Part shown: positions 13,847 through 51,777 of the stretch, one piece after another
Position numbering within the stretch: the first letter of the stretch is position 1
Layout of the letters: each line of letters starts with the position of its first letter
Translations under genes and position numbers: made by a program
Source: Deltaproteobacteria bacterium
GTDB lineage: Bacteria > Myxococcota > Kuafuiibacteriia > Kuafuiibacteriales > Kuafuiibacteriaceae
Assembly: GCA_040218735.1 (NCBI GenBank)
Contig: JAVJQW010000019.1
Location: 160,001-224,000, forward strand
Length of the DNA: 64,000 bases
Reading direction: 5' to 3'
Notes under the pieces: generated by a model
Seen by the model: only the letters and a program-made list of their open reading frames with translations
Told to the model about the DNA's origin: nothing
Databases searched by the model: none

Positions 13847-14425
13847 CTAGCGAGCGTGGACGCCGGTGGCGCCTTCGAGGACGCGGCCAGCGGCGCCCTG
13901 CGCGATGCGATAGATCTCCGCGCGGACTTCCTTCGACGCGGCGCCGTCGCCGATCGTCGACACGGACTGCACCTCGTAGAAGACGGCGGTCGCCTGGTCG
14001 ACGCTGGTGTCGAGCGCCGGGCCGAGCCGGAGCAGACGGATGTTCGACGTGTAGCTCTCCTGGAGCACCGCGTTCCCGGGGTTCTTCACGAAGGTGCTGT
14101 TCGTCTCGTCCATCGCCGACGAGATGCCGAACGGGTCGCGCCGCGGCAGGCCGCCCTGGTCCGTCGCGTACACCCAGCTGTTGTTCGCCGGATCGATCGG
14201 CATGTTGGCCGGGGTGAGGGTCACGTCGGCCATCGTCTCCTGCGCACCACCGATCGCGACCGCGCGGGCCTGGGAGGCCTTGCGGTGCTCGCCGGCGATG
14301 ACCAGGTCGACGTTGACCATGTCGAGGAGCGTGCCTCCCGCGACGGCGACCAACGCAACGACCAACACCACGATGAACAGCGCAAAGCCACGCTGATTCG
14401 GATTTCGGCGACGTCGTTTCTTCAT
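13847..14425 (-). CDS. pilX: Type IV minor pilin, PilX-like
   Basis: MKKRRRRNPNQRG|FALFIVVLVV: class III signal peptide lacking Glu+5, typical of PilX; last gene of the pilV-pilW run. Confidence 0.75.
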   Translation of the reverse strand: MKKRRRRNPNQRGFALFIVVLVVALVAVAGGTLLDMVNVDLVIAGEHRKASQARAVAIGGAQETMADVTLTPANMPIDPANNSWVYATDQGGLPRRDPFGISSAMDETNSTFVKNPGNAVLQESYTSNIRLLRLGPALDTSVDQATAVFYEVQSVSTIGDGAASKEVRAEIYRIAQGAAGRVLEGATGVHAR

Positions 14426-14436
14426 GAGCTTTCTCC

Positions 14437-15657
14437 TCAGCGCGGCAGCGCCATGCGTCCGGAGTTGGTGATCTCCACGGAGGTCCGGTAGACGCGCCGG
14501 TCGCCGTGATCGTTGGTGCCGCAGGGCATCGGGACACACTCGTTGGTGAGCTGAAGGACCGAACCGGCGCGCGGCTTCACGTCCGGGACGCGGCTGCGAA
14601 TGACGAGCTCGACGTCGACGCGGAGGCGCTGCTGACCCGGGATGGGACCGTCGCCGACGAACTGCCAGGCCGGCGGGACGGCGGCGGTGTTCCAGGCCCA
14701 GACGCGCATGCCGAGGAACTCGGTGTACTCCGCGACGATGCCCGCGCAGGTGTTGATGTTCGGCGCGGCGCCCGTGCAGTTGCTGGAGTCGAACACGGCG
14801 CGGCTCAACGTGCCGCTGCGGGTCTGCGCATTCGGCGCGATGAACCACACGACCGTCTTCAGGCCGCCCTGGATTTCGCCGCCGCGGTACGAGGACCCGT
14901 AGGCCTGGTCGTAGGCGGTGAACGTGAGGTCCGGGTCGAGGTCGTCGACGAACTGCTGGCAGCCGTTCGCACACGCCGCCGGGCTGTTCACACACGGACC
15001 CGCTTGCGCCCGGAAGATCGCGGAGCGCGCCTGGATGCCGTCCTGGTGACGAAGGACGACGAGCTCACCGTCCTGGAAGCTGGTCTGCACGCCGATCGCC
15101 GGGTTGTCGAGGCAGTATTCGGCGCCCCCCTCGAAGCTGACGATGGAGGCAAACGAACCGTTGGCCATTCGGATGCCCACGGCTTGGGTCGTGATGTTGT
15201 AGTTCGGGAGGATGAGGCCGCCGTGGCCGACGCCCGCGAACGTCTGCTGCGTCCCGGCCATCACCGCGGGGCCGGCGCCCGTGGGCATGGTGAACGTGGC
15301 GCCGCCGGTGTTGAACCCGACGTTGCGGATCGTGAACGGCCCGCGCACCAAGCCGCGGAAACACGTCGCCCCGCCCGGACAGGGGGAGGCGGCGTTGAGC
15401 TCGGTGTGGTTGCCGTTGGCGACGCCGTAGCCGATGCCGGCGCCCGCCTGAGAGACGTCCTCGACGATCAGGTCGAGCGCGGCGCGCCCGGCCTGGGACA
15501 GCTCGACGCGCTCGCGCGACACACCCATCAGGCGCGTCTCGTGGGCTGCGAAGGTGAACGCCGCGGCGGTGAGCACCGTCGCGATGGCGGTGCCGACGAG
15601 CAGCTCGATCAGCGTGAAGCCGTGTTGGGCGCGGTTCAGCATGGGCGAGGACCTCAT
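14437..15657 (-). CDS. pilW: Type IV minor pilin, PilW-like
   Basis: QHG|FTLIELLVG prepilin motif, R.ALDLI..DV..AG helix, large Cys-containing head. Confidence 0.78.
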   Translation of the reverse strand: MRSSPMLNRAQHGFTLIELLVGTAIATVLTAAAFTFAAHETRLMGVSRERVELSQAGRAALDLIVEDVSQAGAGIGYGVANGNHTELNAASPCPGGATCFRGLVRGPFTIRNVGFNTGGATFTMPTGAGPAVMAGTQQTFAGVGHGGLILPNYNITTQAVGIRMANGSFASIVSFEGGAEYCLDNPAIGVQTSFQDGELVVLRHQDGIQARSAIFRAQAGPCVNSPAACANGCQQFVDDLDPDLTFTAYDQAYGSSYRGGEIQGGLKTVVWFIAPNAQTRSGTLSRAVFDSSNCTGAAPNINTCAGIVAEYTEFLGMRVWAWNTAAVPPAWQFVGDGPIPGQQRLRVDVELVIRSRVPDVKPRAGSVLQLTNECVPMPCGTNDHGDRRVYRTSVEITNSGRMALPR

Positions 15658-16229
15658 AGTCCGGGGACCGCCAGACGGTCCGCGACGACGCGGCGGGAGA
15701 CACGCTGGCCCGCGACGGGGGCGGCGGGCGAGCGGATCAGGCTGTCGTTCCAGCACACGATGGTGGCGACCCGCCAACCGTCGCCGGCGGGGTTCTGACC
15801 CTCCATGATCCGCACGCGGAAGCGACCGTTCAGCGGCGGTCCCGCGGCGGCGGGCGCGATGTTGCCGTGGATGTCGAAGTCGAACGTGCAGCCGAGCGGC
15901 ACGCAGGTCTCGACCGAGCTGCAGACGCCGCCGGGGGCGGAGGCGAAGATGGTGCCGCAGTCGTCGAGCGCCGCGAGCGGAACGGTGCGGGCGGCCGCGT
16001 TGGGGCAGTTGGTCGGGTTGTCGACCGCGAACACCGCGAAGTTGTCCGCGATCTGGCGCGCGACCTCCGAGGCGTCACCGATCCGCGACGAGGAGACCGT
16101 GCCGCGCATGGAGGACTGGTGGAGCCGGACGAGCGCGGTGAGCGCGACCCCGAGGACACCGGCCGCGATGAGGGCTTCGACCAGAGAGAAGCCGGCGGTC
16201 CGCCGGCGCTTTCGCTTTGAGACACCCAT
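15654..16229 (-). CDS. pilV: Type IV minor pilin, PilV-like
   Basis: RTAG|FSLVEALIAAGVLGVAL prepilin motif; AGGAGG upstream; 4-bp overlap with pilW. Confidence 0.75.
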   Translation of the reverse strand: MGVSKRKRRRTAGFSLVEALIAAGVLGVALTALVRLHQSSMRGTVSSSRIGDASEVARQIADNFAVFAVDNPTNCPNAAARTVPLAALDDCGTIFASAPGGVCSSVETCVPLGCTFDFDIHGNIAPAAAGPPLNGRFRVRIMEGQNPAGDGWRVATIVCWNDSLIRSPAAPVAGQRVSRRVVADRLAVPGL

Positions 16230-16242
16230 CCGGGAGTTCCTC

Positions 16243-16299
16243 CTTGCAGGGCCCGGACCAGCGTAGATCCGCGGCGTTCGGGACTGTGAGTGTGCAAGG
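16243..16299 (-). promoter_or_regulatory. Putative sigma54 -24/-12 element plus upstream CCTTGCA box, ahead of pilV
   Basis: Coding strand CCTTGCA-N31-CTGGTCCGGGCCCTGCAAG (GG-N10-GC), same spacing as upstream of pilY1. Caveat: implies a very short leader. Confidence 0.45.
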
Positions 16300-16357
16300 A
16301 TCGTCGGAGGTCCGCAAGGTTTGGGCACTTGTCGGGATCGAGGTGCGCGGGGGTGGG

Positions 16358-17479
16358 TCATCGTTCCACGAGGAGCGCCGGCATCAACACGGCACCGCCG
16401 ACCACCGCGCCCGCGAGCAGCTCCCACCATGGGAATCGCTTGGGGTCGTCGCGGAGGAAACCGAGCACGGCCCACGTGATCCCCGCGGCGAGCAGCGGGA
16501 GCCCGATCTGGGCCTGGACGACGAGCTTGGACGCCACCGCCTCCTCGCCTTCGTCGAGCGTTCTGTAGGACTTGGGCACGTAGGGCGCCCAGAGCGTCAG
16601 GCCCGCGCCGACCGCCGCCGCCGCGATCCCGCCCCACCGCATCCCCGTGTAGACGCCGCCGTAGATCGGCGGGTTCGCGAGGGACAGCTCGAGGTCGAGC
16701 GTGCGACGCCGGCCGGCCGCGAGCGCGACGTCGGTCTCGAACGGTTCGATGTGCGGACCGCGCGCGGTGATGCGTCGCTTGCCGACCTGCACGCGGCGGA
16801 GCTCGACCGCGCGAACGTCGCCGATGCGCGCGACCTCGCGGTCGTCGATGAACAGGTTCACGCCGCCGGTCGACGTCGTGATGCCGAGCTCGGCGTTGGC
16901 GTCGAGGGGATCGACGTCGCGGATCGCGTCGCCGAGGGGGGCGAGCTGCTGGGTGAGGAAGCGAGTGGCTTCGTCGGGCGAAGGGAGGAGCGTCGGCGGT
17001 GCGCGGAGGACGACCGCGTCGCGTCGGATGCTGCGATCGATGGCGGCGTCGTCACCGCCGGTGTCGAGCGCACGCGCGCGATCGAGATCGATGAGGAGGA
17101 CGGCGACGACCTCTTCCTCTTTGTCGGCGATCGTCGTGATGCGCACGGAGATGACCGCGAGGAATCGACCGCCGCGACCGCGTTCTTGTTCGGGGAGCGC
17201 CGTGCGAACGATGCAGAGGGTGCGTGGCATCTTGCGTTCGGTGCAGGCCTCGTACGCGGCGCCTTCGAGCGGGACGACGTCGGCGTCGGCGGTCGCGGCG
17301 AGCGCCTGTTTAATCGCGTTGAAGAGGAACGTCGAAGAGAGGCGCTCGAGGCCTTGCGGCGGGAGGACGAGCGTTGCGAAGACAGGCGCAGGGCCGGCGA
17401 CGTCGATGACGGGGGGCTCGACGTCGGGCGCAGCGAGGAGCGTCGTGGCGAGCGCGGCGATGACCGGGACGAACGACAA
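16358..17479 (-). CDS. Secreted/membrane protein with PEGA-like domain and C-terminal TM helices
   Basis: Signal peptide; V.LFIDD..G.RRITARGP..PFETDV PEGA-like segment; C-terminal hydrophobic stretches. Confidence 0.65.
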   Translation of the reverse strand: MSFVPVIAALATTLLAAPDVEPPVIDVAGPAPVFATLVLPPQGLERLSSTFLFNAIKQALAATADADVVPLEGAAYEACTERKMPRTLCIVRTALPEQERGRGGRFLAVISVRITTIADKEEEVVAVLLIDLDRARALDTGGDDAAIDRSIRRDAVVLRAPPTLLPSPDEATRFLTQQLAPLGDAIRDVDPLDANAELGITTSTGGVNLFIDDREVARIGDVRAVELRRVQVGKRRITARGPHIEPFETDVALAAGRRRTLDLELSLANPPIYGGVYTGMRWGGIAAAAVGAGLTLWAPYVPKSYRTLDEGEEAVASKLVVQAQIGLPLLAAGITWAVLGFLRDDPKRFPWWELLAGAVVGGAVLMPALLVER

Positions 17480-17630: not shown

Positions 17631-19043
17631 GTGGCCGTGGACCCGACGAAGCACAGGTACCGAGTCGGTGAGCGGCTCGGGGGCGGCGGCATGGCGGAGG
17701 TGTACAAAGCGCACCTTCGCGGCGCCGAGGGCTTCGAGCGGGCGGTCGCGATCAAGCGAATACTCACCGGTTACTCGTCGGACGACGCGTTCGCGGAGAT
17801 GTTCATCCGCGAGGCGCGGCTGGCGTCGCGGCTGAGTCACCCGAACATCACGCAGATCATCGACTTCGACCGGGACGACGACGGTCACCTCTTCATCGTG
17901 ATGGAGCTGGTGGAGGGGCGTGACCTGAAGGGTCTGGCGGCGTCGGGGCCGTTGCCGTTGTCGGTGAGTTTGTTCGTGGTCGGTGAGTTGCTGCGCGCGT
18001 TGGATTACGCGCACCGCCTCGACGACCAGGGCCGGCCGCTGCGGATCGTCCACCGCGACGTCACGCCGCACAACGTGCTGTTGTCGTGGGAGGGGGCGGT
18101 CAAGCTGACGGACTTCGGCATCGCGAAGGCGTTGGCGGAGAGCCCGATGACGCAGACCGGCGTGGTGAAGGGGAAGGCGGCGTACCTGAGCCCGGAGCAG
18201 GCGCGCGCGGAGAAGATCGACGCGCGCTCGGATCTGTTCGCGGTGGGCGTGATCCTGCACGAGCTGGTGCGGGGGCAGCGTCTGTTCGGGGTCGAGGAGG
18301 GCGCGGTGGACATGGTTGTCGTCCGGCGCGTGCTGAAGATGGACATCCCGAGCCTTCGCCTGGAGCAGCCGGAGGTGTCGCCGCTGCTCGACAACCTGTG
18401 CATGCGTTTGTTGGCGCGCGAGCCCGACGCCCGCTTCAGCACGGCGCACGCAGCGCTCGAGGCGCTGTTGAGCCTGAAGGAGTACTCGGCGCGGGGCCAG
18501 CTCGAGCTGGCGACGCTGATGCGCGAGCGCTTCGGTTCTCCCTCGTCGCCGCCGGCCGGGCGCCCGGTCGTACCGTCGGGCGTGCCGAAGGGTGACTTCA
18601 CGGGGGTGAGCGCGATGCTCGATCCGGAGCACCCCACGGACGACGCCGACCCGCGGCCGCCCCCCAGCGAGCTCCCCACGGACGACGCCTCCATGGCCAA
18701 GCCGGACTCGATGGACGTAGCGCCGACGATCGCGGTGGTCGCGAAGGATCCGACGACGGCCGAGACCGAGCTCCCCGACACCGCGCCCCCGCCCGGAACA
18801 CCGGCGGACATGCGCCGCACGGAGCGCCTCGACGTGGAGGCGCACCTCGAACGCATCCGCACCTCCCAACCCGACGCGCTCGACATCCGCCCGATGTCGC
18901 GACCCGAGGTCGGCGCGACCTCGGTGCCGGACGCGTCGCGCTCACAAGCGGAGCTGGTACGCCGCGCGAACATGGGGTGGTGGGTGGCGATCGTGGTGCT
19001 GCTCGGCGTGGGGGCCTGGGCGTTGGTGCAGCTGCTGAAGTAA
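17631..19043 (+). CDS. Ser/Thr protein kinase with C-terminal TM anchor
   Basis: GGGGMA, VAIK, HRDVTPHN, DFG, YLSPE; C-terminal WWVAIVVLLGVG. Confidence 0.93.
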   Translation: MAVDPTKHRYRVGERLGGGGMAEVYKAHLRGAEGFERAVAIKRILTGYSSDDAFAEMFIREARLASRLSHPNITQIIDFDRDDDGHLFIVMELVEGRDLKGLAASGPLPLSVSLFVVGELLRALDYAHRLDDQGRPLRIVHRDVTPHNVLLSWEGAVKLTDFGIAKALAESPMTQTGVVKGKAAYLSPEQARAEKIDARSDLFAVGVILHELVRGQRLFGVEEGAVDMVVVRRVLKMDIPSLRLEQPEVSPLLDNLCMRLLAREPDARFSTAHAALEALLSLKEYSARGQLELATLMRERFGSPSSPPAGRPVVPSGVPKGDFTGVSAMLDPEHPTDDADPRPPPSELPTDDASMAKPDSMDVAPTIAVVAKDPTTAETELPDTAPPPGTPADMRRTERLDVEAHLERIRTSQPDALDIRPMSRPEVGATSVPDASRSQAELVRRANMGWWVAIVVLLGVGAWALVQLLK

Positions 19044-19400
19044 GGCGCAGGCGTCGCTCGCGAGTCGGTGCGGAGACGCCAACGCGATGACGTCGACGAG
19101 CGTCGCGACGCTCTAGGCCGCCGCGATCGTCAACCCGAAGGACGAAGTCGGCCGCTTCTCGACCGCGCGCCCCCCTCGGGTTCGGCGGATCCTGGACGGC
19201 GCGTCCCCTTCGGCCTCCGGTCGTGATGGGCCTCGACCTCGCGGGGCGAGTCGCGTCGAGGCCGGCGCGCGGAGGTCGCCGCGACTCCCGCGGTCCAAAA
19301 GACGATCGCTTCGGCGGCCACCGAATCGGCGTGCGCCGGATTCGTTCGGCGGCACCCGAACGTTCGCCGGACGAATCGGCGCCGAAGCAGATCCCATGGG

Positions 19401-22091
19401 GTGGCGCGGGTCTTGGAACGGCGTCGTTGCGTGGCTCGCCCGACCGCGCCTGTGTCCGCCTTCGCGACCGTCCACCCCACGCGCACGTCGGGGCAGGCGG
19501 TCGATCGATCCGTGCTCGTAGCGTCGCCGCCCGTCACGCTCGACCATTCGGTGCCGAGCGACGGGAACCTCCGGGAGCCGGAGGTCCGCGCGAGCGCGAT
19601 CGAGGTGCTCGGGCTCGGGTCGCTCGGCGCCTCGCCGCGTGCGTTGGAGCGTCGGCTCGTGCGGCTGGTACGTGCGCAAGGCGTTCGGGCGGTTCGGCTC
19701 CGCGTGCGCTTGGCGCGGGGCGAGGCCCGGGCGCTGTACGACGGCGCCGTGGGGATCGGTTCGGCGCCTGCGCTGCGACGTGCGGATAAGATCCTACGGC
19801 GGCTCGACGTCCTCGACGTCGGGCTCGATCGATTCGAAGCGGAGCGCGCTCGGGTTCGCGCGGCGATGACACCGCGGGCGGTGGCGACGGCCGAGGCGAT
19901 CCTCGAGCAAACGCGTGCGTCGGTGCGTTCGTGGCGGGATCAGTACGGCGACGAGACCGAGCTGCTCGCGCTCCGCGCCGACGCGCAGGCGCTGTTCGAG
20001 GCGCGCGGGCGTTTCGAGCGGGCGAGCGGCGCCGAGCGGATCTCGGCGCGTGCAGCGTATGACGCGTTGCACGCGAGAATATCGGCGAGGCACCCGCCGC
20101 TCGCGTCCGCGAGCCTCGCTGCGCCGCTCACGGAGCTCTGGGCGTTTGGTAGCGAGACGGACTCGAAGCAGGTGGGGCAGGTCGTCGTGGACGTCCCGCG
20201 TCCGATCGACGCTGCGCTCGAAGCGAAGATCGAGGCGACGCTCGACGGCGTCGACGCGATGCAAGCTCGCTTGCGCGACGATCCGGACGCGGTGTGGCAG
20301 CTCCCGGACGTCGTCGAGGCGACGCTGATCGCGGAGGGGATCGTCGCGCACGGGATGGTCGCCGCGCACGCGCGAGACGTAGTGCGGGAGGTGAATCGCG
20401 ACGCGCGCATGTGGCGGACGTTTGTGTCGATCGCCGCGGTCGGCTTGGGGATCGCGGCGGCGCTGCCCAGCGGTGGAGCGAGCCTCGCGGCGACGGCGGT
20501 CGCGACGTCGGCGCTCGACGGGTACCAGCTCTACCTCGCGTACGCGGAGTATCGGCGAGGCGTCGACGCGGCGGACGCGGGGCTCGCGGCGGAGCGCCCG
20601 TCGCCGCTGCCGGTGATCCTAGAAGCGGCGGCGACGACCGCCGGCGCGGGCGGCGCGGCGACGGCGCTCGCAAAATCTCGCTTCGTTCGTGCGCTCGGCC
20701 GCACGGACGATCTGGGCGCTGCCACGCGTGCGATGGAGACGCGCCTAGGTCGGGAGCGGGCGGCGTCGCTCTTCGAGCGTTTCGGAGGAGACGGGGTCGA
20801 AGCGCTGCCGGCGGAGCTGTGGTCGCGGTTGGCGGCCGTGGACGAAGAGGCGTTGGACGCGGCGCTGGATGCGCTCGGTCCCGAACAGGTCATCGCGTGG
20901 ACGGAGGGGGTGGGGCCGGAGCGTGTCGCGGCGCTGGTGGCGGACGTGCCATCCGGGTGGTGGCCGGACCTGACCGCCACGGCGATCGATCCCGAGGCGA
21001 TCGAGGGTGTCTTGGCGCTGGGGTCGGAGGTGGTCGCGACGTTGCTGCCGTCGGTGAAGGGCGAGGGGCTCGCGGCGCTCGCGCGGGCGGCGGACGGGGC
21101 GCCGGTGTCGGTGCTCGACGACGGCTTCGCGGTGGTCCGCGGTGTGCGGTTCCATCCGCGTTCGCCGGGCGGTGCGGACCGACTCGGCGATGTGTTGTCG
21201 CGATGGGACGAGTTGGTCGCGCGCGCGCCCGACTTGGCGAGCTTCGGGCCGTGGAGTGAACGGGAGATCGGTCGGGTCGAGGAGCTGATCCGGGAGGTGT
21301 CGGGGGGCAAGCGTCCCAAGCGTGCGGCGTTCAGGTCGCTCGCCTCGCGGTCGGGCGCTGCGCCGAGCGCGCTGCGCCGCGCGGTCCACGCGGCGGCGGG
21401 GCGCGCGGTGGTGTTGGGCCGTCGCTCGGCGGCGCTCGTCGTGCGCGCGCCTCAGCTGCGCGACGGCCTGGAGTCGTTGGCGCTGAGCGCGGTGTCGCCG
21501 GCGACGCGGGCGCGCGCGCTGGACGGTGTCGAGCGTGCGTTGGGGGCGGCGGTGACGATCTCGCGTCGGCATCTGGCCGCGTGGTTGGACGACGCGGCGG
21601 ATGCGGGCCACTCGATCGAACGCTGCTTCGTCGACCGGCTGGTGGAGTTGGAGTATGCGGTCGAAGCGATCGAAGCCGGGCGCGCGGCGGAGGGGAGCAC
21701 GGTGTTCCTCGGCCTGAAGCCAGGCGAGCGCGTGGCCCTGAAACCGGGCGGCCCGTGGTTCGAGGTCCCGCCGACCACCCCGGGCCGAGTGGGGGCCTTG
21801 GAGGACATCGACGTGGTATTCATCGACGCGGACGACGTGGTGCACGTGGTGGAGGTGAAGCGCACGGACGAGGCGCTGTGGAAGGCGCTGGAGAAGACGA
21901 GTGGCGACTACGTCGATAAGTTCGTGCAGCTACGCGGCGAAGGTGCGGCGGCCGAGCAGAAGCGCGAGGTCACAATGGCGATTCGGTCGCCTGGGACGGG
22001 AGCGTTGGACCGACCCCTGACCGTCGGGGAAGGCGAAACGCCGCGCGCGGTGCTCGCGAAGAAGGCGATTCGCGTGGAGTTCGAGCCATGA
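19401..22091 (+). CDS. Putative polymorphic toxin with hydrophobic hairpin and C-terminal PD-(D/E)xK nuclease-like domain
   Basis: Central IAAVGLGIAAALPSGGASLAATAVA segment; C-terminal ELEYA...DIDVVFID..VHVVEVK motif; ATGA overlap with the next gene. True start uncertain (could be near 19551). Confidence 0.6.
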   Translation: MARVLERRRCVARPTAPVSAFATVHPTRTSGQAVDRSVLVASPPVTLDHSVPSDGNLREPEVRASAIEVLGLGSLGASPRALERRLVRLVRAQGVRAVRLRVRLARGEARALYDGAVGIGSAPALRRADKILRRLDVLDVGLDRFEAERARVRAAMTPRAVATAEAILEQTRASVRSWRDQYGDETELLALRADAQALFEARGRFERASGAERISARAAYDALHARISARHPPLASASLAAPLTELWAFGSETDSKQVGQVVVDVPRPIDAALEAKIEATLDGVDAMQARLRDDPDAVWQLPDVVEATLIAEGIVAHGMVAAHARDVVREVNRDARMWRTFVSIAAVGLGIAAALPSGGASLAATAVATSALDGYQLYLAYAEYRRGVDAADAGLAAERPSPLPVILEAAATTAGAGGAATALAKSRFVRALGRTDDLGAATRAMETRLGRERAASLFERFGGDGVEALPAELWSRLAAVDEEALDAALDALGPEQVIAWTEGVGPERVAALVADVPSGWWPDLTATAIDPEAIEGVLALGSEVVATLLPSVKGEGLAALARAADGAPVSVLDDGFAVVRGVRFHPRSPGGADRLGDVLSRWDELVARAPDLASFGPWSEREIGRVEELIREVSGGKRPKRAAFRSLASRSGAAPSALRRAVHAAAGRAVVLGRRSAALVVRAPQLRDGLESLALSAVSPATRARALDGVERALGAAVTISRRHLAAWLDDAADAGHSIERCFVDRLVELEYAVEAIEAGRAAEGSTVFLGLKPGERVALKPGGPWFEVPPTTPGRVGALEDIDVVFIDADDVVHVVEVKRTDEALWKALEKTSGDYVDKFVQLRGEGAAAEQKREVTMAIRSPGTGALDRPLTVGEGETPRAVLAKKAIRVEFEP

Positions 22092-22756
22092 GCTCAACGC
22101 CCTTCGCGGGACTCGAAGACGCAGTCAGCCATCTCCCCGAGCGCTGGGCGTTCATTTCGCGCGTCCCGCGAGACGAATTCGCGGTGCCAGGCGAAGTCAC
22201 GAAGGGCTTTCGCGGCGTCGCGGCCGTCCTGACCCTCCTCGGACCCTCGGACGCCCGCGAGGTTTCTGCGGAGGTTGGGTACGGGCGCGACGGCGGGTGG
22301 TTCGCCTTCAAGGAGCGCTTCGCTGACCTTCGAACGCTGTCGGCTGCGAATGTGAACGCCTACCTGGTCGAGCAGTTCGGGAGCGCGAACGCGGCGAGCC
22401 ATGGCCGCTGGTCGATGCAGGGGTGGCTTCGTGACCGCGTCGGAAACATCGCCAAGCGGGTGATCATTGACGTCCCGGCGTGGTTCAACGAGGACCCGAC
22501 CGGCCTGCGCGAAGTCGCCTTCGAGGAGCTCCAACGCGTCGCCCTCCTCCTCCCCGACCGTCACCAGGCCGACTGCCTCCGACTGATCCTCGAGCGCGTC
22601 GAGATGCGCGCCTTCGACTTCGCGCGCCGCCTCTACCACCACCCCGACGCCGGCCCCGCCATGAAGGCCGTCGTCCACGAGGTCTTCGAGCCCGACTACG
22701 CAGCGAAGCTGATCGCGGACGTGCCGGAGTCGCATGCGCCGTCCCCGTGGTTGTGA
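22088..22756 (+). CDS. Putative cognate immunity protein 1
   Basis: 222 aa, ATGA-coupled to the toxin stop, no signal peptide, paralog directly downstream. Confidence 0.55.
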   Translation: MSSTPFAGLEDAVSHLPERWAFISRVPRDEFAVPGEVTKGFRGVAAVLTLLGPSDAREVSAEVGYGRDGGWFAFKERFADLRTLSAANVNAYLVEQFGSANAASHGRWSMQGWLRDRVGNIAKRVIIDVPAWFNEDPTGLREVAFEELQRVALLLPDRHQADCLRLILERVEMRAFDFARRLYHHPDAGPAMKAVVHEVFEPDYAAKLIADVPESHAPSPWL

Positions 22757-23694
22757 GGTCGCGAGGAGGGTGGAGGGCATCGACGTGGTATTCATCGACG
22801 CGGACGACGTGGTGGAGGTGAAGCGCACGGACGAGGCGCTGTGTGGAAGGCGCTGGAGAAGACGAGCGGTGAGTACTTCTACAAGTTCGTGCGGCTTCCC
22901 GTGCAAGGCGCGGCGGTCGGACAGAAGCGCGAGGTGACGATGGCGATTCGGTCGGTGGAGACGGTAGCGTTGGATCGTCCGCTTCCTCTGCTCTCGGAGG
23001 AGAGTGTTCGCGTCGAGGTCGCCCCGTGATCGCGCCGGACTGGGAGGCGTTTCGGAGCGCCGTCGCTCAGATTCCTCCGCGCTGGACGGCTCGTCTGGTG
23101 CCCCGGCCTCCTGGCTTCGAGCCTCCTACGCCGGACGCCGTGCGAGCCGGTTTCTCGGGCATCCAAGGAGCCATCCGAGCACTTGGACCTCGCCGCCACA
23201 ATGAACCAGAAGCGCCAGCCGCCGCTCGACCCGGTGGACCTTGGGAGGGGTTCGCGTACCGATGGCCGAACCTCCACGAATTCCGTTGGGAGGACGCTGA
23301 GGCGTTCATAACCGAGCGAAGCGGTCCCGAGGCCTTTGACGCGGACGGCCTCCTCGTCGTCGTCGGCTGGCTCCGTGGGTACCTCGGCCATAGCGCCAAG
23401 GAGATCATCATGGACGTCCCGGCGTGGTTCAACGAGGACCCGACCGGCCTGCGCGAAGTCGCCTTCGAGGAGCTCCAACGCGTCGCCTTCCTCCTCCCCG
23501 ACCGTCACCAGGCCGGCTGCCTCCGCCTCATCCTCGAGGTGGTCGAGATGCGCGCCTTCGACTTCGCGCGCCGCCTCTACCACCACCCCGACGCCGGCCC
23601 CGCGATGAAGGCCGTCGTCCACGAGGTCTTCGAGCCCGACTATGCCGCGAAGCTGATCGCGGACGTGCCGGAGTCCCACGCGCCGTCCCCGTGG
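22469..23694 (+). repeat. 282-bp near-identical direct repeat (22469-22750 and 23413-23694)
   Basis: gacgtcccggcgtggttcaacgaggacccg...gtccccgtgg occurs twice, 944 bp apart, with about a dozen mismatches counted by eye. Confidence 0.95.
22772..23029 (+). pseudogene. Orphan, frameshifted copy of the toxin C-terminal tip
   Basis: Aligns with 21800-22091 (catcgacgtggtattcatcgacgcggacgacgtgg...gaagcgcgagg). Has a 9-bp deletion, a 2-bp TG insertion near 22841 and a further short deletion. Confidence 0.85.
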
Positions 23695-23700
23695 GCGTGA
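23026..23700 (+). CDS. Putative immunity protein 2 (paralog of 22088-22756)
   Basis: GTGA overlap with the orphan tip; C-terminal ~94 aa almost identical to immunity 1, N-terminal part divergent. Confidence 0.6.
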   Translation: MIAPDWEAFRSAVAQIPPRWTARLVPRPPGFEPPTPDAVRAGFSGIQGAIRALGPRRHNEPEAPAAARPGGPWEGFAYRWPNLHEFRWEDAEAFITERSGPEAFDADGLLVVVGWLRGYLGHSAKEIIMDVPAWFNEDPTGLREVAFEELQRVAFLLPDRHQAGCLRLILEVVEMRAFDFARRLYHHPDAGPAMKAVVHEVFEPDYAAKLIADVPESHAPSPWA

Positions 23701-23795
23701 TGCCGCGGAACGCGGACCGGGCGTGGGCGGTGATGCCTGGGTTGAAGTAGGGTGACGGTTGTGCAGATTCGCTGGGCGGAGCACGGTAGGCGCGC

Positions 23796-24497
23796 GTGAT
23801 TGCCTGTCTGGTCGGAGTTCTGGTCAGCGCGCCCGTCGGCATCCTCCCCGTGGAGCTCGAGGGCCTGGAGAGTTTGGATCGTAGCTTCCTCCTCGCGGAG
23901 GTCTCGGAGCACGTCGAACGCATCACGAAGAGCAAGCCGGTCATCGGCGACTTCGCGGCCTCTCCCGCAGAGCTGTCGGCGTCGACGGGCGTCGAGCGCG
24001 TCATCGGCGTATCGATGGTGAAGGGGGCCGCGCTCGTGCGGATCTCGCTGCAGCTCCACGAGCCGTCCGGCGCGCGCCGAGCGCTTCAGTTCGATGGTGT
24101 TGGGGATAGAGAGGTATGGGGCGCCGCGTTGTCCGGGCTCGTGGAGGCGCTCTTGCTCGATCGCGGCCCGGCGGTGGCGACGGCGGTCGTTCAGTCCGCT
24201 CCGGAGCCCCCGCCCAAGTCCACGGCGTTGTGGTGGGGCGGGGTCGCGCTCGGTGCGACGGGACTCGCCGTCGGGACCACGCTGAGGATCATCGCCTCGA
24301 ACAAGGACGGCCGCGCGGAGGAGCTTCGAGAGCAACAGCTCGAAGCGACGTCACGTCCGGAGTGGGAGATGCTCGACGAAGCACGGGAGACCGCTTCGAT
24401 GTCGGGCGCCAGACTCGGAACGGCGTCGAACGTCACGCTGATCATCAGCTCGGCGATCACGGGCGCGGCGCTCGCGGCGTTGGTGTCGGCGTGGTGA
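23796..24497 (+). CDS. Hypothetical exported protein with C-terminal TM hairpin
   Basis: Hydrophobic N-terminus and two C-terminal hydrophobic helices; GTGA overlap with the next gene. Confidence 0.65.
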   Translation: MIACLVGVLVSAPVGILPVELEGLESLDRSFLLAEVSEHVERITKSKPVIGDFAASPAELSASTGVERVIGVSMVKGAALVRISLQLHEPSGARRALQFDGVGDREVWGAALSGLVEALLLDRGPAVATAVVQSAPEPPPKSTALWWGGVALGATGLAVGTTLRIIASNKDGRAEELREQQLEATSRPEWEMLDEARETASMSGARLGTASNVTLIISSAITGAALAALVSAW

Positions 24498-27945: not shown

Positions 27946-29574
27946 ATGACGGTCATCGCCGGAAAGTACATCGCCGAAGAGCGGATCGGCGTGGGCGGGA
28001 TGGCCACCGTGTACCGCGGCCGCCTGCTCGGGGTGCACGGTTTCGAGCGTCCCGTCGCGATCAAGCGCATTCATCCGGGACATGCATCAGACCCGAGCTT
28101 CGTCGCAATGTTCAAGCGAGAAGCGCGAATCGCGGCTCGGCTGAACCACCCGAACATCGTCTCGATCGTCGACTTCGACCGTGCAGAGGACGGTGGCCTC
28201 TTCTTGGTGATGGAGTTCATCGAAGGCGTCGACCTGCGTAGGTTGGTGAAGGCGGGGCCAGTCCCGGTCGCGTGTGCGTTGTTCGTTGTCGCGAAAGTAC
28301 TTGGCGCTCTCGCTCACGCGCATTCGGTCGGTGTGGAAGGGGCCGTCGATCGCGTTGTCCACCGCGATGTTACGCCGCACAACATACTCATTTCGCGCGA
28401 GGGTGATGTGAAGCTCTCCGACTTCGGGATCGCGCGGGCGATGTCGGAGAGTCCGCTCACCAAGACTGGCGTAGTCAAAGGCAAGATGGGTTACCTGAGC
28501 CCGGAGCAGGCTAGAGGCGAGCCCCTCGACGCGCGCTCGGATCTCTTCTCGTTGGGGGTCATCTTGCACGAGCTGGTCGCGGGTGATCGGCTGTTCCGCG
28601 TAGCGTCCGGAGCCGCTGGACTCCTCGAGGTCCAGCGCAAGCTCGCGGATGGGATCCCGTCATTGGGTTCCGCCAGCGTAGACGTGTCCGCGGAGCTCAT
28701 CGAAGTGTCCGACCGCCTGCTCGCGATTGATCGCTCCGCCCGTTTTCGGTCCGGTGAGGAGGCGCTGGATGCGCTCCTATCTTGCCCGGAGGTCAGCAAC
28801 CGGGGGCGCGAGGACCTCGCAGAACATCTGTGTGAGATGTTCGACGGCACCGTAGCGCTTGCGCTCGATCCGGCAGCGCAGACAGAAACGGAGGACGCGG
28901 AAGCCGATGCCTCGGTCCTTGGGTTGACCGAGCCGACGACACGCGTCATGGCGAGCGCTGTCTCAGGAGATCGTCGCGTCGAGCATGTGGCGCCGCCGCC
29001 GCGAGCAAGGTGGTTCAGCAAGATCGGATGGATTCTATCGGTGGGCGGCGCGACCTTGGGTCTCGTCCTCCTGGCGGACAGGCTGCGCACCGAAGAGGCG
29101 GCCGTAGTTCCGACGGCGCATGAGGAGCGAGAACCACCAGCGCGGGTGCAGCCGATTGTGGAGCCGCGCGCGACAACCAAATCCGATCAAGATGTCAGGA
29201 AGGTGGCGCAGCCACGGACGAGCGTTCGACCGAGCGGCGTCCGGCGTTTCGGTGACGCCCGACGAACCCGCCAAAGCGTCGTTGACGCCCCCACAACCAC
29301 GAGCCCGAAACCTCCAACGGCAGAGCCGACCCAAGTCTCGCCCGACGTGCTGGAGGCACGTATCGACGCTGTAGGGCGGCGCCTGAGGGCGGGTCTGGAT
29401 GTGGATCGGAGTCGAGCCGCGATACTAGATCAGCAGTACTTCGATCTTCGCGCGGCAGCGCGGGGCGCCCGACGCACGGGGGATTGGAGCCAGGTCGAGC
29501 TTCGACTTCGGCGAGTCGAGAGAGAAGTTGCTACGAAGGCGAGGGCCGCAGGAAGTAGCGATGCCTCTCCGTGA
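27946..29574 (+). CDS. Membrane Ser/Thr protein kinase (close paralog of 17631-19043)
   Basis: GVGGMA, GFERPVAIKRI, HRDVTPHN, DFG, YLSPEQAR; TM helix then extracytoplasmic helical tail. Confidence 0.93.
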   Translation: MTVIAGKYIAEERIGVGGMATVYRGRLLGVHGFERPVAIKRIHPGHASDPSFVAMFKREARIAARLNHPNIVSIVDFDRAEDGGLFLVMEFIEGVDLRRLVKAGPVPVACALFVVAKVLGALAHAHSVGVEGAVDRVVHRDVTPHNILISREGDVKLSDFGIARAMSESPLTKTGVVKGKMGYLSPEQARGEPLDARSDLFSLGVILHELVAGDRLFRVASGAAGLLEVQRKLADGIPSLGSASVDVSAELIEVSDRLLAIDRSARFRSGEEALDALLSCPEVSNRGREDLAEHLCEMFDGTVALALDPAAQTETEDAEADASVLGLTEPTTRVMASAVSGDRRVEHVAPPPRARWFSKIGWILSVGGATLGLVLLADRLRTEEAAVVPTAHEEREPPARVQPIVEPRATTKSDQDVRKVAQPRTSVRPSGVRRFGDARRTRQSVVDAPTTTSPKPPTAEPTQVSPDVLEARIDAVGRRLRAGLDVDRSRAAILDQQYFDLRAAARGARRTGDWSQVELRLRRVEREVATKARAAGSSDASP

Positions 29575-32989: not shown

Positions 32990-35900
32990 TTAGAAGGACG
33001 GGTCGACCTGCAGTCGCCACATGTAGAGGCGGACTGCGCGACGGTTTTGGCGAGCCGGCAGCATCGGCTGGGCCGCTGCGCCCGGCTCGGGCGTTCCGGT
33101 CGTGACGACGGGAGGCCCATCTGCGGGAGTGTAGAGCAGGAGATCACCGCCAATGTCCGTGTTGCCCTGCCAGACTCGACGATCGTTGGCATTGACGCCG
33201 TTGACGCCGTTCATGTCGCCCAGCGGAGCCGCGTTACAGTTGTCGACCGCGTACACCGAGTCGATACCCGTCGCCGAAACGCACTCCGTCGCCTTGTTGA
33301 TGGGCTCATAGGTCTTGAAGTAGGCCACGCCGTCGATGACCAGCGGGTTGCGGAGAATCTGTGCGTCAGGCGTAACGGCGACGTACCAGCCGTTGCCTGT
33401 CTGCGAAGCAAAGGCCGCATTGGCGTAGTCCACGCTGGTCACTGCCGTTGCGTCGTAGAGCTGCTCCAGGCCGAGGTCGGTCGTCGAACTCCCGTCATCC
33501 CAGATCACGCCGTAGACGTTGAAGTCCGGTGCGCCGCCGGCCGCGTCCGGACCGGGGATAATCGGCGGCCAGCCAGGAACAGGAGGCGTCGAGATCGCCG
33601 AGTTGCGGAGGTTCAGGTCCAGGGCCGGACGCTGCACGTTCCCCGTGCCGAAGTACACGCCGAATCGGCGAGCGCCCGTGCAGGTGGAGATCGCGACGTC
33701 CAGCTTCGTGAAGATCTTTCGGTAGTCCTTCGAGTCGCGCGGGAGCGGGGCGCCGTCGTTGTTGAGGTGCGCGATGCGGCGGACGTTGAAGAAGCCGCCG
33801 GGGCCCGGGGCCGTGCTCGGGGCGCGTTCGATCGCCCAGATCTGGCCGCACTCGTCGCCGACGTACGCGGTGCGGAAGAGGCCGCCCTCTCGGTAGACCG
33901 TGGGCTCCGCGGAGATCGGGCACGTGAAGTTGGTGAGCGCGGGGTGCGTCGTCCGGTCGAGGCAGACGCCGCGGACCGGCGGGGAGTCGCCGCAGTCGTA
34001 GGTCACGCGGGCGAGGATCGCGCCCTCCTGCTGGTTGTTGGTCGGCAGGTCGTTGAAGGTCGTCGCCGCCGCCGCCGGGGCCGCCGCGAGACCGTTGTAG
34101 TTGAACGAGTTCAGGTCGACGAAGTACACCGTCGGCATCCGCTGACCCGGCGACGGCGCCGTCGTGTTCGCCGTCTGGTAGTCGATGCTCGCGATCGTCC
34201 AGCCCGACGCCGCGCTGTCGTCGATGCCGTCCGTCACCACGTTCAGGCGGAAGCCGTTGGTGTCGTAGATCCAGGGCGTCACCGCGGGGCCGGCGTTGCC
34301 GGTGTACCGGACGACCTCGTTGCCCGTGCTGTCCGTGACCGCGACGTAGTCGTTCGCCTGCATGTTGATGCCGGAGAAACGAACGCGATACGCCTTGCCG
34401 CCGTTACCCGAGCTGAACTGGAACGGACCGAGCGGGATCGTGTAACCCGACCCACTCCCGTTGCCGGACAGCGGCGAACCGGGGTGCGCGCTCCAACCGG
34501 ACCAGTCGTAACACGGCTTCAGCGCCGCGGTCGCGTTGGCCGCGCTCGGGTTGTAGAGCGGAAGGATGTCCGCGAGCAGGTCGGTCAGGAACGTCGTCAT
34601 ACCGCTCGTGCAGTAGCCATTGCCGCTCGTGCAGGGCTGGCACTGCGCCGGGTTGCAGAGGATGTTGCGCGTAGCCGGAGGAATGATGAGGCCGAGCGGG
34701 TTGAGCAGCGGGTCCGTCTCGAGCGCCGTGCACACCGCGTTGATCGCGCCACCGAGGCTGCACTCCGCCGCCGAGATGCCGAGCACACCGCAGAGATCGT
34801 TGTGCTGAACGTTGCTCGGGCCGGGCGGTAGGTTGCTCTGGAGGGCACCGAAGTCCACGGTGTTGATGTCGTCCTCGCGGTCGTGACCGGAGACGATGAT
34901 GCCCGTCGGGACGACCGACTGCGTGTCGACCTCGCGGAAGTTACCGACCCACATCGGCGCCCACGTCTCGCGAAGGTGACGCAGCGAAGACTGCTGGTCG
35001 TCGATGCTCAGCGCCTGCGGCGCGAGGCTCGCGGCGTTGCCACCGAAGTTCGCCGACACGTCGAACTTCAGGTACTGCCGACCACCGCGCCCGAGGCCGA
35101 AGATGAGGTACGCCGTCTCGGCGTTGTTGATGTTGCCGTCGCCATTGCGGTCGTCGTGGTAGAGGCGGCCCTTGCCGTCGAAGTAGTAGCGCCGCATCTC
35201 GTCGAGCGTCGGCTGGTCCATGATGTCGCGGAGCTGGTGCGTGTTGACGAGGTTGTCGGACCACAGGTGGCCCGGGATGACCGCCGAGATCTCCCAGCCG
35301 TTCGCCGCGTCGTAGAAGTGCAGCATGCCTTCGTTCGAGTTCACCGCGAGGAAGCAGTTACCGGGCGCCTGGCAGTTGTCGGCGTAGCGGATCAGGATCG
35401 TGGAGCCGTTGATCGTGTCGCCGATCGGCCACTGATCGACCGCGATCGGGTTGCTGTCTGCGACCGTGGCGCACCCGCTCGCGCCGACCGCCTCGGCCGT
35501 GTAGCCGAACAGCTTGTTGACGAGCTCCGCGTGCTGGCACCAACCGCTCGTGTTGGTGAACGTCGGGTTGAACACGGCCGGGTTGCCGCGCGGGCCGGTG
35601 ATCGGAATCCAGCTCGGCGTTCCGGGCGCCCACGTCATGATGTTACGGCCCGCGTAGGGCGCCGCCGGGATGACCGCCGGGTTCGCCGGATCCGCGAACG
35701 TGTGCGTCGGCATCACCGCGCCGGTACCGCCGACATTGGCGTCCTGCGTGTTCGTGAACGTCCAGATGTCGAGCGGCGTCGGGTTCGCGAGGAGCGCGCC
35801 GGTCGGCGAGCCGCCCTGACGGAGGAACATGCAATCTACGCTGCCCGGGTTGGCCGGGGAGAGGAGCTGCGGGTCGACGCAGTACTTCTTCGTCGTGCCG

Positions 35901-36994
35901 TGCCACGAGCCGCGGTCGAACGGGCGGAACGACGTCACGTAGACGTAGTTGCCCGAGAACAGTCCGTCGTTCTGCAGCGTGCCCGGCGAGAACGCCACGT
36001 TGGAGCGCGCGATGACCGACAGGATGATCGTCTGGAACGCGTTCGCGAGCTCGCCGTACGTCGTCGGCGTGAAGGCCTGCCCGAGGCCCGCCGTCGCCAT
36101 GTCGTCGAGGAGGATCTCGGCCGCCGCGCCCGCGTCGAACGCGACCGTGTAGGTCCGGATGTCCTGGTTGCCATCGACGTCCGAGTCGACGTCGATCGTG
36201 TCGATCACCGGGGTCGAGATGTCGGCGTCGACCATGTAGGCCGCCGCGACGTCGGTGTGGGGCGCCGAGCCGTTGAGGTCACGAATCGTGCTGCCACCGC
36301 CCAGCGGATCGATGAGCTGTGCGAGCGCGCCGATCTGCCAGTTGTTGACCGCGCTGCCGTTCGAGGAGCCGTCGGACATCACGACGAGGTAGTTCTGGCG
36401 GCACTGGAGCGTGTTGTTGCAGCCGGTGGCGCCGGAGGTCGTCGGCGACGCACAAGGGGAGCCACCCGTCGCGCTGTAGCGGAAGAAGTCCGTCTGGTAC
36501 TGCGCGCCAGCGTAGTACTGCTGGGCGAGGGGGGTGCCGCCCTGCGGGCTCATCGCGAGGATGTCGTTCTGGATGCCGTTGAGGTTGCCGCCCGCGGTGT
36601 TGAAGCCGCCATTGGTCGTGATGCCATCGCCGGTGTTCGTGCCGAACAGACGCAGCGCAAAGAGGGCACGGGACGCGAAGGGGAGGTCCAAGATGCCGTC
36701 CGTAATTCCGGTGCAGCCGGTCATGGCCGCCTTGAGGAGGTCGATCTTACGGTAGTTCGCCGGGTTGAACGTCCGTGAAGGCGCCGCGACGAGCGCGCCG
36801 ATCGAGTCGAAGTAGCCGCAGTTCGGCGCGGTCCCCGTCGAGTCGTTCATCGAGCAAGACGAGTCCAGAATCAGCTGAATCTGCGGAAGTGTGTCCGCAC
36901 CGCGAAGAATGTCCAAGCCGTCCGGATAGGTCGGCCCTCCGGCGACGACCTGTCCCGCTAGCGCGGTCGTGACGACGAGCATCGAGTTCAGCAT
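32990..36994 (-). CDS. pilY1: Type IV pilus tip adhesin, PilY1-like (vWA + beta-propeller, with CUB-like insert)
   Basis: MIDAS DSSCS..GGTPL..SDG; PilY1 motifs NEGMLHFYDA..GWE, YYFDG, GLGRGGR.Y..DV, ETW, YVGD..GQIW, YFGTG, GWY; Ca-loop-like DRNGDGNIN. Confidence 0.88.
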   Translation of the reverse strand: MLNSMLVVTTALAGQVVAGGPTYPDGLDILRGADTLPQIQLILDSSCSMNDSTGTAPNCGYFDSIGALVAAPSRTFNPANYRKIDLLKAAMTGCTGITDGILDLPFASRALFALRLFGTNTGDGITTNGGFNTAGGNLNGIQNDILAMSPQGGTPLAQQYYAGAQYQTDFFRYSATGGSPCASPTTSGATGCNNTLQCRQNYLVVMSDGSSNGSAVNNWQIGALAQLIDPLGGGSTIRDLNGSAPHTDVAAAYMVDADISTPVIDTIDVDSDVDGNQDIRTYTVAFDAGAAAEILLDDMATAGLGQAFTPTTYGELANAFQTIILSVIARSNVAFSPGTLQNDGLFSGNYVYVTSFRPFDRGSWHGTTKKYCVDPQLLSPANPGSVDCMFLRQGGSPTGALLANPTPLDIWTFTNTQDANVGGTGAVMPTHTFADPANPAVIPAAPYAGRNIMTWAPGTPSWIPITGPRGNPAVFNPTFTNTSGWCQHAELVNKLFGYTAEAVGASGCATVADSNPIAVDQWPIGDTINGSTILIRYADNCQAPGNCFLAVNSNEGMLHFYDAANGWEISAVIPGHLWSDNLVNTHQLRDIMDQPTLDEMRRYYFDGKGRLYHDDRNGDGNINNAETAYLIFGLGRGGRQYLKFDVSANFGGNAASLAPQALSIDDQQSSLRHLRETWAPMWVGNFREVDTQSVVPTGIIVSGHDREDDINTVDFGALQSNLPPGPSNVQHNDLCGVLGISAAECSLGGAINAVCTALETDPLLNPLGLIIPPATRNILCNPAQCQPCTSGNGYCTSGMTTFLTDLLADILPLYNPSAANATAALKPCYDWSGWSAHPGSPLSGNGSGSGYTIPLGPFQFSSGNGGKAYRVRFSGINMQANDYVAVTDSTGNEVVRYTGNAGPAVTPWIYDTNGFRLNVVTDGIDDSAASGWTIASIDYQTANTTAPSPGQRMPTVYFVDLNSFNYNGLAAAPAAAATTFNDLPTNNQQEGAILARVTYDCGDSPPVRGVCLDRTTHPALTNFTCPISAEPTVYREGGLFRTAYVGDECGQIWAIERAPSTAPGPGGFFNVRRIAHLNNDGAPLPRDSKDYRKIFTKLDVAISTCTGARRFGVYFGTGNVQRPALDLNLRNSAISTPPVPGWPPIIPGPDAAGGAPDFNVYGVIWDDGSSTTDLGLEQLYDATAVTSVDYANAAFASQTGNGWYVAVTPDAQILRNPLVIDGVAYFKTYEPINKATECVSATGIDSVYAVDNCNAAPLGDMNGVNGVNANDRRVWQGNTDIGGDLLLYTPADGPPVVTTGTPEPGAAAQPMLPARQNRRAVRLYMWRLQVDPSF

Positions 36995-50352: not shown

Positions 50353-51777
50353 TCACGGGAGGGCGGCGAGCGGAGCGAGCTTCGCGGCGACGGCGGCACG
50401 CGCCTCGAGCTCGGCCGTGACCTTGTCGTCCAGCGTCTTCAGCACCGCGTCGAGGATCTCCGGCAGCGTGACGCCGCCGCGCTCGATCGACGCCCGCGCG
50501 CGCAAGTACCCGAGGCCCCCGTGATCCGTGGGCGCCAGCTGCCCAACGCAAACCGCCAAGGTGCGGAGCGCATCGATGCTCATCGCGTCGAACGCGACGA
50601 ACCCGCGCCGCCCCTCGATACCCTCCAGCCGCAACGTCGCCTCGGCGCCGTCGGTGCGGAGCCGATACCCCTCGACGGGGCGCGCTGCATCGTCGGGGAA
50701 CGCGGCGACGCTGCGCACCGGGTCGCACGCAGGGAGGCCGGGGTACACACCCTCGTCGAGCGGATAGGGCGCGGGGTTCATCAGGGCCAACAGATCATGT
50801 TCGACGCGGTCGCGGACTTGGGGCGGCCAGTCGTCGTGCTTCGCGGCGGCGAGGAGGTCGGCGGCGGACAAAACCTCGTCGTAGGCGTCGATGGCGCGCG
50901 CCACGATCAGGAGCGCGGTCGCGATCCGACCGAGGCCGGCCGCCCGGTGGACGGGGCCGTCGACGACGTCCTCGGGTTCGAGCGCGGCGAGCACGTCGAC
51001 GAGCGTGGCGTCGTGCTCGGCGACGTGGGCCGCGAACAACGCGAGCGCGTCGCGGGTGTGGTCGGGGCGCCTCTTCTTCTTCGCGGGCTTCGCGGCTTCG
51101 AGCTGGGCGACGCGGTCGAGCGCCGCGCCGACGGCGTCGATGTCCGCCGCCGCCATCTCGCCGATGGGGCGAGGAAGATCGAGCTGGCCGGGGTCGTCGA
51201 GGACGATGCGTCCGTCCTCGACGAGGGCTTGTTTGCGATCGAGCTCGGCGTCGACGACGGCGCGCGCGTCGATGAGCATCCGCTTCGTCGGCGCCGCACC
51301 GAGCGCTTCGCTCGCCGCCTGTAGTGCTTCGGGGCTCCAGCTCCGCGGTGTAGCCGTGTCTACGTCGTCGTCTTCGTCGCGGAAGAGCCGGACATGCGGG
51401 TGCGCGCAGAGCGTGACCCCGCGTTTGTCGTGATCGACCACGCCGACGTGCTTCGCGAAGGGGTCGTGGCCGAAGGCTTCCTCGCGCAGCGCGGCGCGCG
51501 GATCGTGGATCTCGGAGAGGAGGGCGTCGATGAAGTCGCCGAGGTTGTCGACCACGTGCGCGCGCGCGGCGAGCTGGGGACGGTGATCGACGAGCAAGAG
51601 CGTCGCGAGCATGGCGCGGTCGGGATCGTCGTAGGCGGCGGCGTTGATCGAGCGGATCGAGACGCTGGGATCACGGACGACCGCCGACAGGTACGCGAGA
51701 TCTTCCGCGGTGAACGTCGACGCGTCCGCGTGGTCGCGCAGCGATCGGCGCAGGCCGCGGTCGAAGTCGATCGGCAC
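50353..51777 (-). CDS. Hypothetical helical protein, paralog B
   Basis: End-to-end similarity to 52174-53697; codon bias supports coding. Confidence 0.8.
   Translation of the reverse strand: MPIDFDRGLRRSLRDHADASTFTAEDLAYLSAVVRDPSVSIRSINAAAYDDPDRAMLATLLLVDHRPQLAARAHVVDNLGDFIDALLSEIHDPRAALREEAFGHDPFAKHVGVVDHDKRGVTLCAHPHVRLFRDEDDDVDTATPRSWSPEALQAASEALGAAPTKRMLIDARAVVDAELDRKQALVEDGRIVLDDPGQLDLPRPIGEMAAADIDAVGAALDRVAQLEAAKPAKKKRRPDHTRDALALFAAHVAEHDATLVDVLAALEPEDVVDGPVHRAAGLGRIATALLIVARAIDAYDEVLSAADLLAAAKHDDWPPQVRDRVEHDLLALMNPAPYPLDEGVYPGLPACDPVRSVAAFPDDAARPVEGYRLRTDGAEATLRLEGIEGRRGFVAFDAMSIDALRTLAVCVGQLAPTDHGGLGYLRARASIERGGVTLPEILDAVLKTLDDKVTAELEARAAVAAKLAPLAALP

Follow-up and report, generated by a model that had tools for sequence, protein, structure and literature searches.

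What kind of system is encoded at positions 19401–23700 of the 64,000-nucleotide stretch of Deltaproteobacteria contig JAVJQW010000019.1 analyzed here (the window), and by what route might its product reach a target? The first-pass annotation had described an 896-amino acid open reading frame (ORF), an ATGA-coupled 222-amino acid gene, a degenerate copy of the end of the ORF, and a GTGA-coupled 224-amino acid paralogue, and all four were found where it had placed them. The toxin gene, read from the GTG start of the database protein, encodes 879 amino acids (19452–22091, plus strand, as for all features of the locus); the longest ORF (19401–22091) encodes 896, and the start of a relative corresponds to position 19431. 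The toxin gene overlaps through an ATGA with the gene of a presumed cognate immunity protein of 222 amino acids (22088–22756), which has homologues. Next comes an orphan half-tip (22770–23029), a frameshifted internal repeat of the toxin 3' end that carries a different C-terminal allele. The start of the last gene, encoding a presumed orphan immunity protein of 224 amino acids (23026–23700), overlaps the orphan stop in a GTGA; this protein is a paralogue of the first, with a divergent N-terminal half and a near-identical C-terminal half. The bias in G+C content at third codon positions agrees with the frames of these genes. The blastn search of positions 19000–24000 against the window recovered both internal repeats, that of the toxin end (21799–22018 versus 22771–22983, 83%, E 1e-61) and that of the 3' half of the small gene (22421–22763 versus 23365–23707, 91%, E 2e-135), and both far exceed chance.

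The C-termini of relatives identify this, at the level of sequence, as a polymorphic toxin locus. With the delivery route left aside, it very probably encodes a polymorphic nuclease toxin with immunity, toxicity and immunity being predicted from the architecture. A first search yielded five proteins, one of which combines the shared trunk (38% identity over 631 residues) with an EndoU tip and another of which has a third tip; two homologues stem from a 'Deltaproteobacteria' and a 'Myxococcales' metagenome-assembled genome, from which the host probably belongs to Myxococcota. In trees of the trunk core, rooted at the midpoint only and drawn from a search whose profile was built from the clade itself, 20 proteins including the window toxin form one branch (FastTree support 0.978, 171 rows; SH-aLRT 99, 52 rows). 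Eleven of the 20 have the restriction endonuclease (REase) tip of the window toxin, which among the matches listed occurs on this trunk or as fragments only. One has the EndoU tip, which shares 44–51% identity with tips found in Rhs and other toxins, one an AvrB-like tip, and two a tip with an HExxH motif and PHROG matches. Two others have in common a tip with no library match, which we take to be PIN-like; one has a sixth, unassigned tip, and two are incomplete. Six unrelated tip classes thus occur on one trunk among the 18 clade proteins with C-termini, and in P0007, P0012, and P0015 trunks that are 49–62% identical end differently. Homologues that share the N-terminus and differ in the tip, for which the first-pass annotation had proposed to look, therefore exist. 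The AvrB/XopAH-like tip belongs to P0022; such domains are known in plant-directed effectors, and some clade members may accordingly target eukaryotes.

The trunk of the toxin corresponds to the core conserved across a large family of toxins of the DUF4157 type, associated with extracellular contractile injection systems (eCIS) such as the Photorhabdus virulence cassettes (PVC), and the system accordingly counts as a branch without DUF4157 within a kind already known. Its conserved helical core (19809–20696), assigned by profile homology, is common to DUF4157/eCIS-type toxins and is in no Pfam or NCBIfam model tested. A trunk profile searched against 1.84 billion representatives gave 423 matches at E<=1e-3; among the 150 best of these, which were analyzed, 138 have the trunk core, and 74 of the 138 have eCIS_core/DUF4157. 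Reciprocally, a profile of 12 DUF4157-bearing proteins from GTDB linked to contractile injection systems (CIS) gave the window toxin a score of 64.4 bits, or 19.7 bits once the hairpin was masked. A compositional artefact behind the trunk homology was ruled out, as the reversed sequence scored -3.7 bits and 400 shuffles scored no more than 1.8 bits. No match was found in plasmid and phage collections.

The genomic neighborhoods of trunk genes point to the same family. A scan of GTDB with the hairpin pattern gave 58 loci, 30 of them with a trunk gene above 40 bits and 29 of these distinct (L044, the same place as L043, was left out, and L049, at 23.9 bits, was put among the controls). Genes for a CIS ATPase, sheath, tube, Pvc16, or tape measure, named by Pfam on our own gene calls with each locus's own genes left out, lie within 10 kb in 14 of the 29 trunk loci versus none of 28 control loci, which are not fully independent because many belong to one unrelated hairpin family. 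In addition, L055 encodes a CIS spike tip and L038 a PAAR protein. At four loci (L007, L011, L024, and L043), a trunk gene lacking DUF4157 lies directly 3' of a CDC48-like ATPase of the cargo-loading type, and loss of DUF4157 is scattered many times across the family tree, including genes beside the ATPase. The first-pass annotation had presented the family as undescribed and without a recognizable delivery link, a view that the trunk homology and these loci do not support in that form.

Some further observations were made at these loci. Many of the control matches (L001, L005, L008, L013, and others) form a separate small-protein family with a near-identical A-A-I-P-T-G-G-L-S-L hairpin. Two trunk genes occur per locus at L043:8794-14330, L024:7802-15446, and L038:8012-17647, those of L043 being a DUF4157-less and a DUF4157-bearing gene in tandem behind the ATPase. 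In L002, L025, L028, L042, and L052, from Actinobacteria and Chloroflexi, a solitary DUF4157-less trunk gene is followed by an unannotated gene of 137–274 amino acids; these pairs are candidates for further toxin-immunity pairs.

Ahead of the trunk core lies a Pro/Ser/Thr-rich, poorly conserved leader (19452–19601), a candidate loading sequence with a short clade motif (TRT.., found by regular expression in 11 of 19 clade proteins). Its Pro/Ser/Thr content is 32%, versus 13% in residues 81–450. The leader is FoldIndex positive despite this composition and lack of conservation and so does not count as disordered by that measure. The most conserved part of the trunk is a Gly/Ala hydrophobic hairpin (20409–20546) with the pattern L-G-h-h-A-A-h-P-[ST]-G-G-x-S, a possible membrane-insertion element. 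The hairpin had been noticed at the outset; it is present, though its hydrophobicity is merely moderate, with a Kyte-Doolittle 19-mer maximum of 1.68. No RHS, hemagglutinin, PAAR/VgrG, DUF4157, or lipoprotein trafficking feature had been recognized in the toxin at the outset, and this holds: the protein has no Pfam match at E<=1, RHS, hemagglutinin, and PAAR/VgrG domains are absent by Pfam and NCBIfam, and neither an h-region nor a lipobox is visible in the N-terminal sequence read directly. Our own DUF4157 profile, which scores true members at 70–113 bits, matched none of the 19 clade proteins tested.

The tip (21417–22088) consists of a helical pre-domain and a domain whose fold, in the predicted model, is that of a PD-(D/E)xK nuclease, in keeping with the REase-fold tip and E...D.D...EVK motif first proposed. 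The model, made from 14 sequences, has a pLDDT of 92. Foldseek gave 17 rows for ranks 1–18, the best being PfoI (E 9e-4) and others including Card1 and NucS/EndoMS; we take all 17 to be PD-(D/E)xK-type nucleases. VIA aligned the model with NucS (Z 7.1, rmsd 2.8, 104 aligned residues) and with Burkholderia CdiA-CT (Z 5.7, rmsd 3.4, 106 aligned). The key residues, in the numbering of the 896-amino acid ORF, are E749 (nucleotide 21645), D802, D804, E818, K820, Y837, and K840. The rows that cover D802, D804, and E818 all conserve these residues (13 of 13); K820 is conserved in 12 of 13, E749 in 11 of 12, and Y837 and K840 in 14 of 14. Neither the tip sequence nor the alignments of trunk and tip found a meaningful match when searched against PDB sequences. 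The tip resembles Tox-REase-1 to -10, set out in Table 2 of PMC3482391, in its E..D..ExK signature, restriction-endonuclease fold, and terminal position. It differs from them in having no Pfam match (E<=1 for the window protein, E<=0.01 for tip homologues), in a D-x-D before the strand, and in an invariant Y-x-x-K. The same table lists Tox-REase-7 with a HEAT-type helical immunity protein; the Atlas similarity of the tip to Tox-REase-7 is just 0.86, a lead.

No family in Pfam, NCBIfam, or PHROG is matched by the presumed immunity proteins or by the tip, and the immunity proteins match no SUKH, SuFu, ImmHEAT, or ImmN profile, which agrees with the unrecognized immunity family that had been suggested. 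The first of them has three homologues among 672 candidates. Its model is all-helical (pLDDT 80), with a best Foldseek E of 0.67, a best VIA match to a designed helical repeat (Z 7.5, rmsd 4.4, 133 aligned), and Atlas matches below 0.9 with TM below 0.4, none of which points clearly to a fold. A profile of this protein had no match in 5,251 ORFs of the 58 GTDB loci, all of which lack the window tip, and at L040 an SMI1/KNR4 immunity gene occupies the position of the partner gene.

The two partner paralogues are mosaic. Their N-terminal halves are identical at 28 of 109 positions (26%) and their C-terminal halves at 99 of 111 (89%), the latter with 10 synonymous and 12 nonsynonymous codon differences in 111. 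Compared with the two copies, the distant P0011 is 24–33% identical in the N-half and 56–59% in the C-half. In its N-half, the second copy thus differs from the resident protein as much as that of a distant species does, yet its C-half is almost that of the resident, a combination that calls for recombination; the mosaic suggests, from these alignments, allele swapping between conserved arms. It fits recombination through conserved blocks as described in PMC9484751. The tandem immunity paralogues treated there, EsaG and TipC, are likewise mosaics of conserved and variable blocks; the proteins themselves are unrelated, and unlike in those cases one homology arm here lies inside the catalytic core of the toxin, so that the tip end and the immunity N-half would move together.

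The degenerate copy of about 95 codons reported at first is present as a repeat of about 97 codons; it is not, however, a whole tip. Its first element is the D-x-D strand, which lies within the nuclease core, and the helix with E749 is absent, so that it amounts to a half-domain. Its lesions are a 9-nucleotide deletion, a 2-nucleotide insertion (the frameshift, near 22841), and a deletion of about 27 nucleotides near the end. After the frameshift, it is identical to a stand-alone 95-amino acid protein, P0025, at 52 of 61 positions, to the full toxin P0006 at 44 of 60, and to the resident toxin at 40 of 61. P0025 is a similar orphan with an open reading frame. An origin of the 9-nucleotide deletion in assembly alone was rejected, since P0025 has the same deletion; the frameshift could be private to the strain or the assembly. 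A GGAGG-like site and a GTG precede the half-tip (22757–22772), from which it may still be translated and so couple the expression of the second partner gene.

This layout fits a displaced older allele whose immunity gene has been kept, as described in passages of PMC5361080. Like the orphan modules of contact-dependent growth inhibition (CDI), Rhs, and Maf loci and the displaced-effector arrays of the Vibrio type VI secretion system (T6SS) in that text, the locus has a toxin, a coupled immunity gene, a 3' toxin remnant, and a second immunity gene coupled to that remnant. Unlike them, it has no CdiB, RHS, MafB, or VgrG, and the remnant represents a sister allele of this nuclease, with its start within the catalytic core, rather than another class of toxin. 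Judged by the domains that define those groups, the locus belongs neither to CDI, Rhs, or SitA nor to the DUF4157 proteins. The SitAI lipoprotein toxins of myxobacteria also have polymorphic nuclease tips with immunity; the window toxin differs from them in having no lipobox or signal peptide, and no similarity in sequence to them was noticed, although no search was aimed at it.

Among the closest comparisons is that with the toxins of PVC secretion systems and eCIS that carry the PVC-metallopeptidase domain (DUF4157, PF13699; PMC3482391, PMC8213781, PMC11297309), to which the trunk core and hairpin are homologous. As in these toxins, the C-terminal nuclease or peptidase tips vary, no Sec signal is present, and relatives adjoin a CDC48-like ATPase and tail genes. 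The window toxin differs in being solitary, without DUF4157, in a separate clade, and with an REase tip of no listed family; unlike many eCIS toxins, it also has a coupled partner gene and an orphan pair. For lack of DUF4157, we file it as a relative that possibly works like DUF4157 proteins, not as one of them. The Streptomyces CIS effectors Tme and Sle1 have helical regions and predicted membrane helices according to passages of PMC11126660 and PMC13277306; the excerpts of PMC12210884 hold nothing further on Myxococcota.

With its shared stalk, the toxin most likely works like eCIS-type toxins. We put at about even the chance that the system is a DUF4157-less, stand-alone polymorphic toxin of the PVC/eCIS type in full, in an organism like a myxobacterium and including delivery by eCIS. 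On this model, the leader would direct the protein to be unfolded and threaded by an AAA ATPase of the Pvc15/Afp15 type into a contractile injection tube, the eCIS itself being encoded elsewhere in the genome. After injection, the trunk hairpin would engage the target membrane, and the tip would enter the cytoplasm and cut nucleic acid, most likely DNA. The protein encoded at 22088 would shield the producer and its clone-mates, its N-half setting specificity, and the half-tip and the protein encoded at 23026 would be what is left of a sister allele that was displaced, retained as protection against relatives. Recombination would act through two conserved arms, one being the nuclease core and the other the C-half of the immunity protein, and would exchange the end of the tip and the immunity N-half as a unit.

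The eCIS route is one that we infer, because DUF4157 is in none of the 20 clade proteins, the clade branches apart from all CIS-linked members, and no CIS gene occurs in the 64 kb of the window. These facts weigh against eCIS delivery, and several others weigh against parts of the model. Only 3 of the 13 loci without DUF4157 in any trunk gene are near CIS genes, versus 11 of the 16 with DUF4157. A GTDB scan for the close clade gave 106 pattern matches, none of them confirmed, and none of the 29 GTDB trunk loci falls in the clade. A GN-x-A leader motif is present in 24 of the 151 family members outside the clade and absent from all 19 clade proteins, and a profile of that leader scored only weakly above shuffles, for P0004 and P0005; a link between the clade and other family members through this motif was not supported. 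Many PVC/eCIS toxins have no immunity genes, according to passages of PMC3482391 and PMC8213781, and orphan immunity points to contact conflict at the level of kin. The VIA Z values of the tip are below 8, and designed helical proteins, which match the pre-domain, take three of the top four rows. As to the linkage of tip and partner in relatives, P0005 and P0009 each lie on a 110,337-bp contig, and P0014 (42% identical) and P0011 (43% identical) each on a 7,749-bp contig, a weak sign because an unrelated Streptomyces contig is equally 110,337 bp long.

Alternatively, the same toxin-immunity system may have departed from eCIS in this clade and be delivered either by a contact-dependent myxobacterial machine (T6SS, or one like Tad or type III secretion) or through release by lysis or vesicles, with the hairpin mediating self-entry as in bacteriocins; this corresponds to the unknown delivery route of the first-pass annotation. 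The clade is separate and uniformly free of DUF4157 and has its own leader motif; no CIS genes occur in 64 kb; 10 of the 13 DUF4157-less loci elsewhere are solitary; and orphan immunity is typical of contact-dependent kin conflict in the passages of PMC5361080. Set against this are the strong and reciprocal homology of the trunk to CIS-linked proteins, the many losses of DUF4157 across the family, even beside the ATPase, and the absence of any Sec, lipoprotein, PAAR, VgrG, or RHS feature from the toxin. We consider such a route possible, and hold it only tentatively. A broader proposal is that in a myxobacterial lineage an eCIS-cargo stalk freed from its machine has become a kin-discrimination toxin class of its own, with a new delivery route (hairpin entry), new REase and helical immunity families, and specificity recombined as a cassette that has the nuclease core at one end and the C-half of the immunity protein at the other; this we regard as unlikely.

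The nuclease might instead be self-directed, in release of extracellular DNA, programmed lysis, or addiction or defense, with the downstream gene encoding an antitoxin. Its model would be the Streptomyces CIS nuclease Tme, which has DUF4157, hydrophobic helices, and a C-terminal nuclease and serves extracellular DNA release and development according to passages of PMC11126660; PD-(D/E)xK folds are, moreover, common among defense nucleases. Six interchangeable tips and a retained second partner allele are, however, what conflict between strains would favor, and the EndoU tip also occurs in Rhs toxins, so that we find this explanation improbable. That the downstream genes encode a chaperone or adaptor and the second unit arose by a tandem duplication that is neutral and now decaying would agree with the broken orphan, with partner proteins that match no family, and with the small partner proteins that exist for CIS effectors (in passages of PMC13277306), yet is most improbable, since a neutral copy would diverge evenly and not to 26% in one half and 89% in the other, the second gene has stayed intact next to a decaying half-tip, the partner family was not found with the trunk where the tip differs, and L040 holds an immunity gene of another family at the partner position.

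The neighbors of the toxin locus are genes for Ser/Thr kinases, pilin-like proteins, RCC1, and housekeeping functions. Related Ser/Thr kinase genes flank it (17631–19043 and 27946–29574, 72% over 287 nucleotides), and G+C content drops from about 0.72 to 0.61–0.68 across 22–33 kb of the window; together these suggest a variable region. The regions 13847–16637 and 32990–36994 (minus strand) hold a cluster of type IV pilin-like genes with the N-methylation motif and an unannotated, secreted-looking protein of 1334 amino acids. Farther away, two adjacent ORFs on the minus strand, 50353–51777 (474 amino acids) and 52174–53697 (507 amino acids), have N-termini that look alike and no Pfam match. The window has no tRNA and no Rfam element.

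The trunk, tip, and partner are not described in the titles and abstracts of the literature searched, and proteins of this sort might appear in the supplements of PMC3482391 and PMC8213781. The trunk core marks hundreds of toxins, to judge from its 423 representatives, and occurs next to eCIS genes whether DUF4157 is present or not; it could serve as a DUF4157-independent marker of eCIS cargo, and it explains part of the 'long linker' mentioned in passages of PMC8213781. With this locus come one candidate family each of nuclease toxins and of immunity proteins, together with a compact case of specificity switching.

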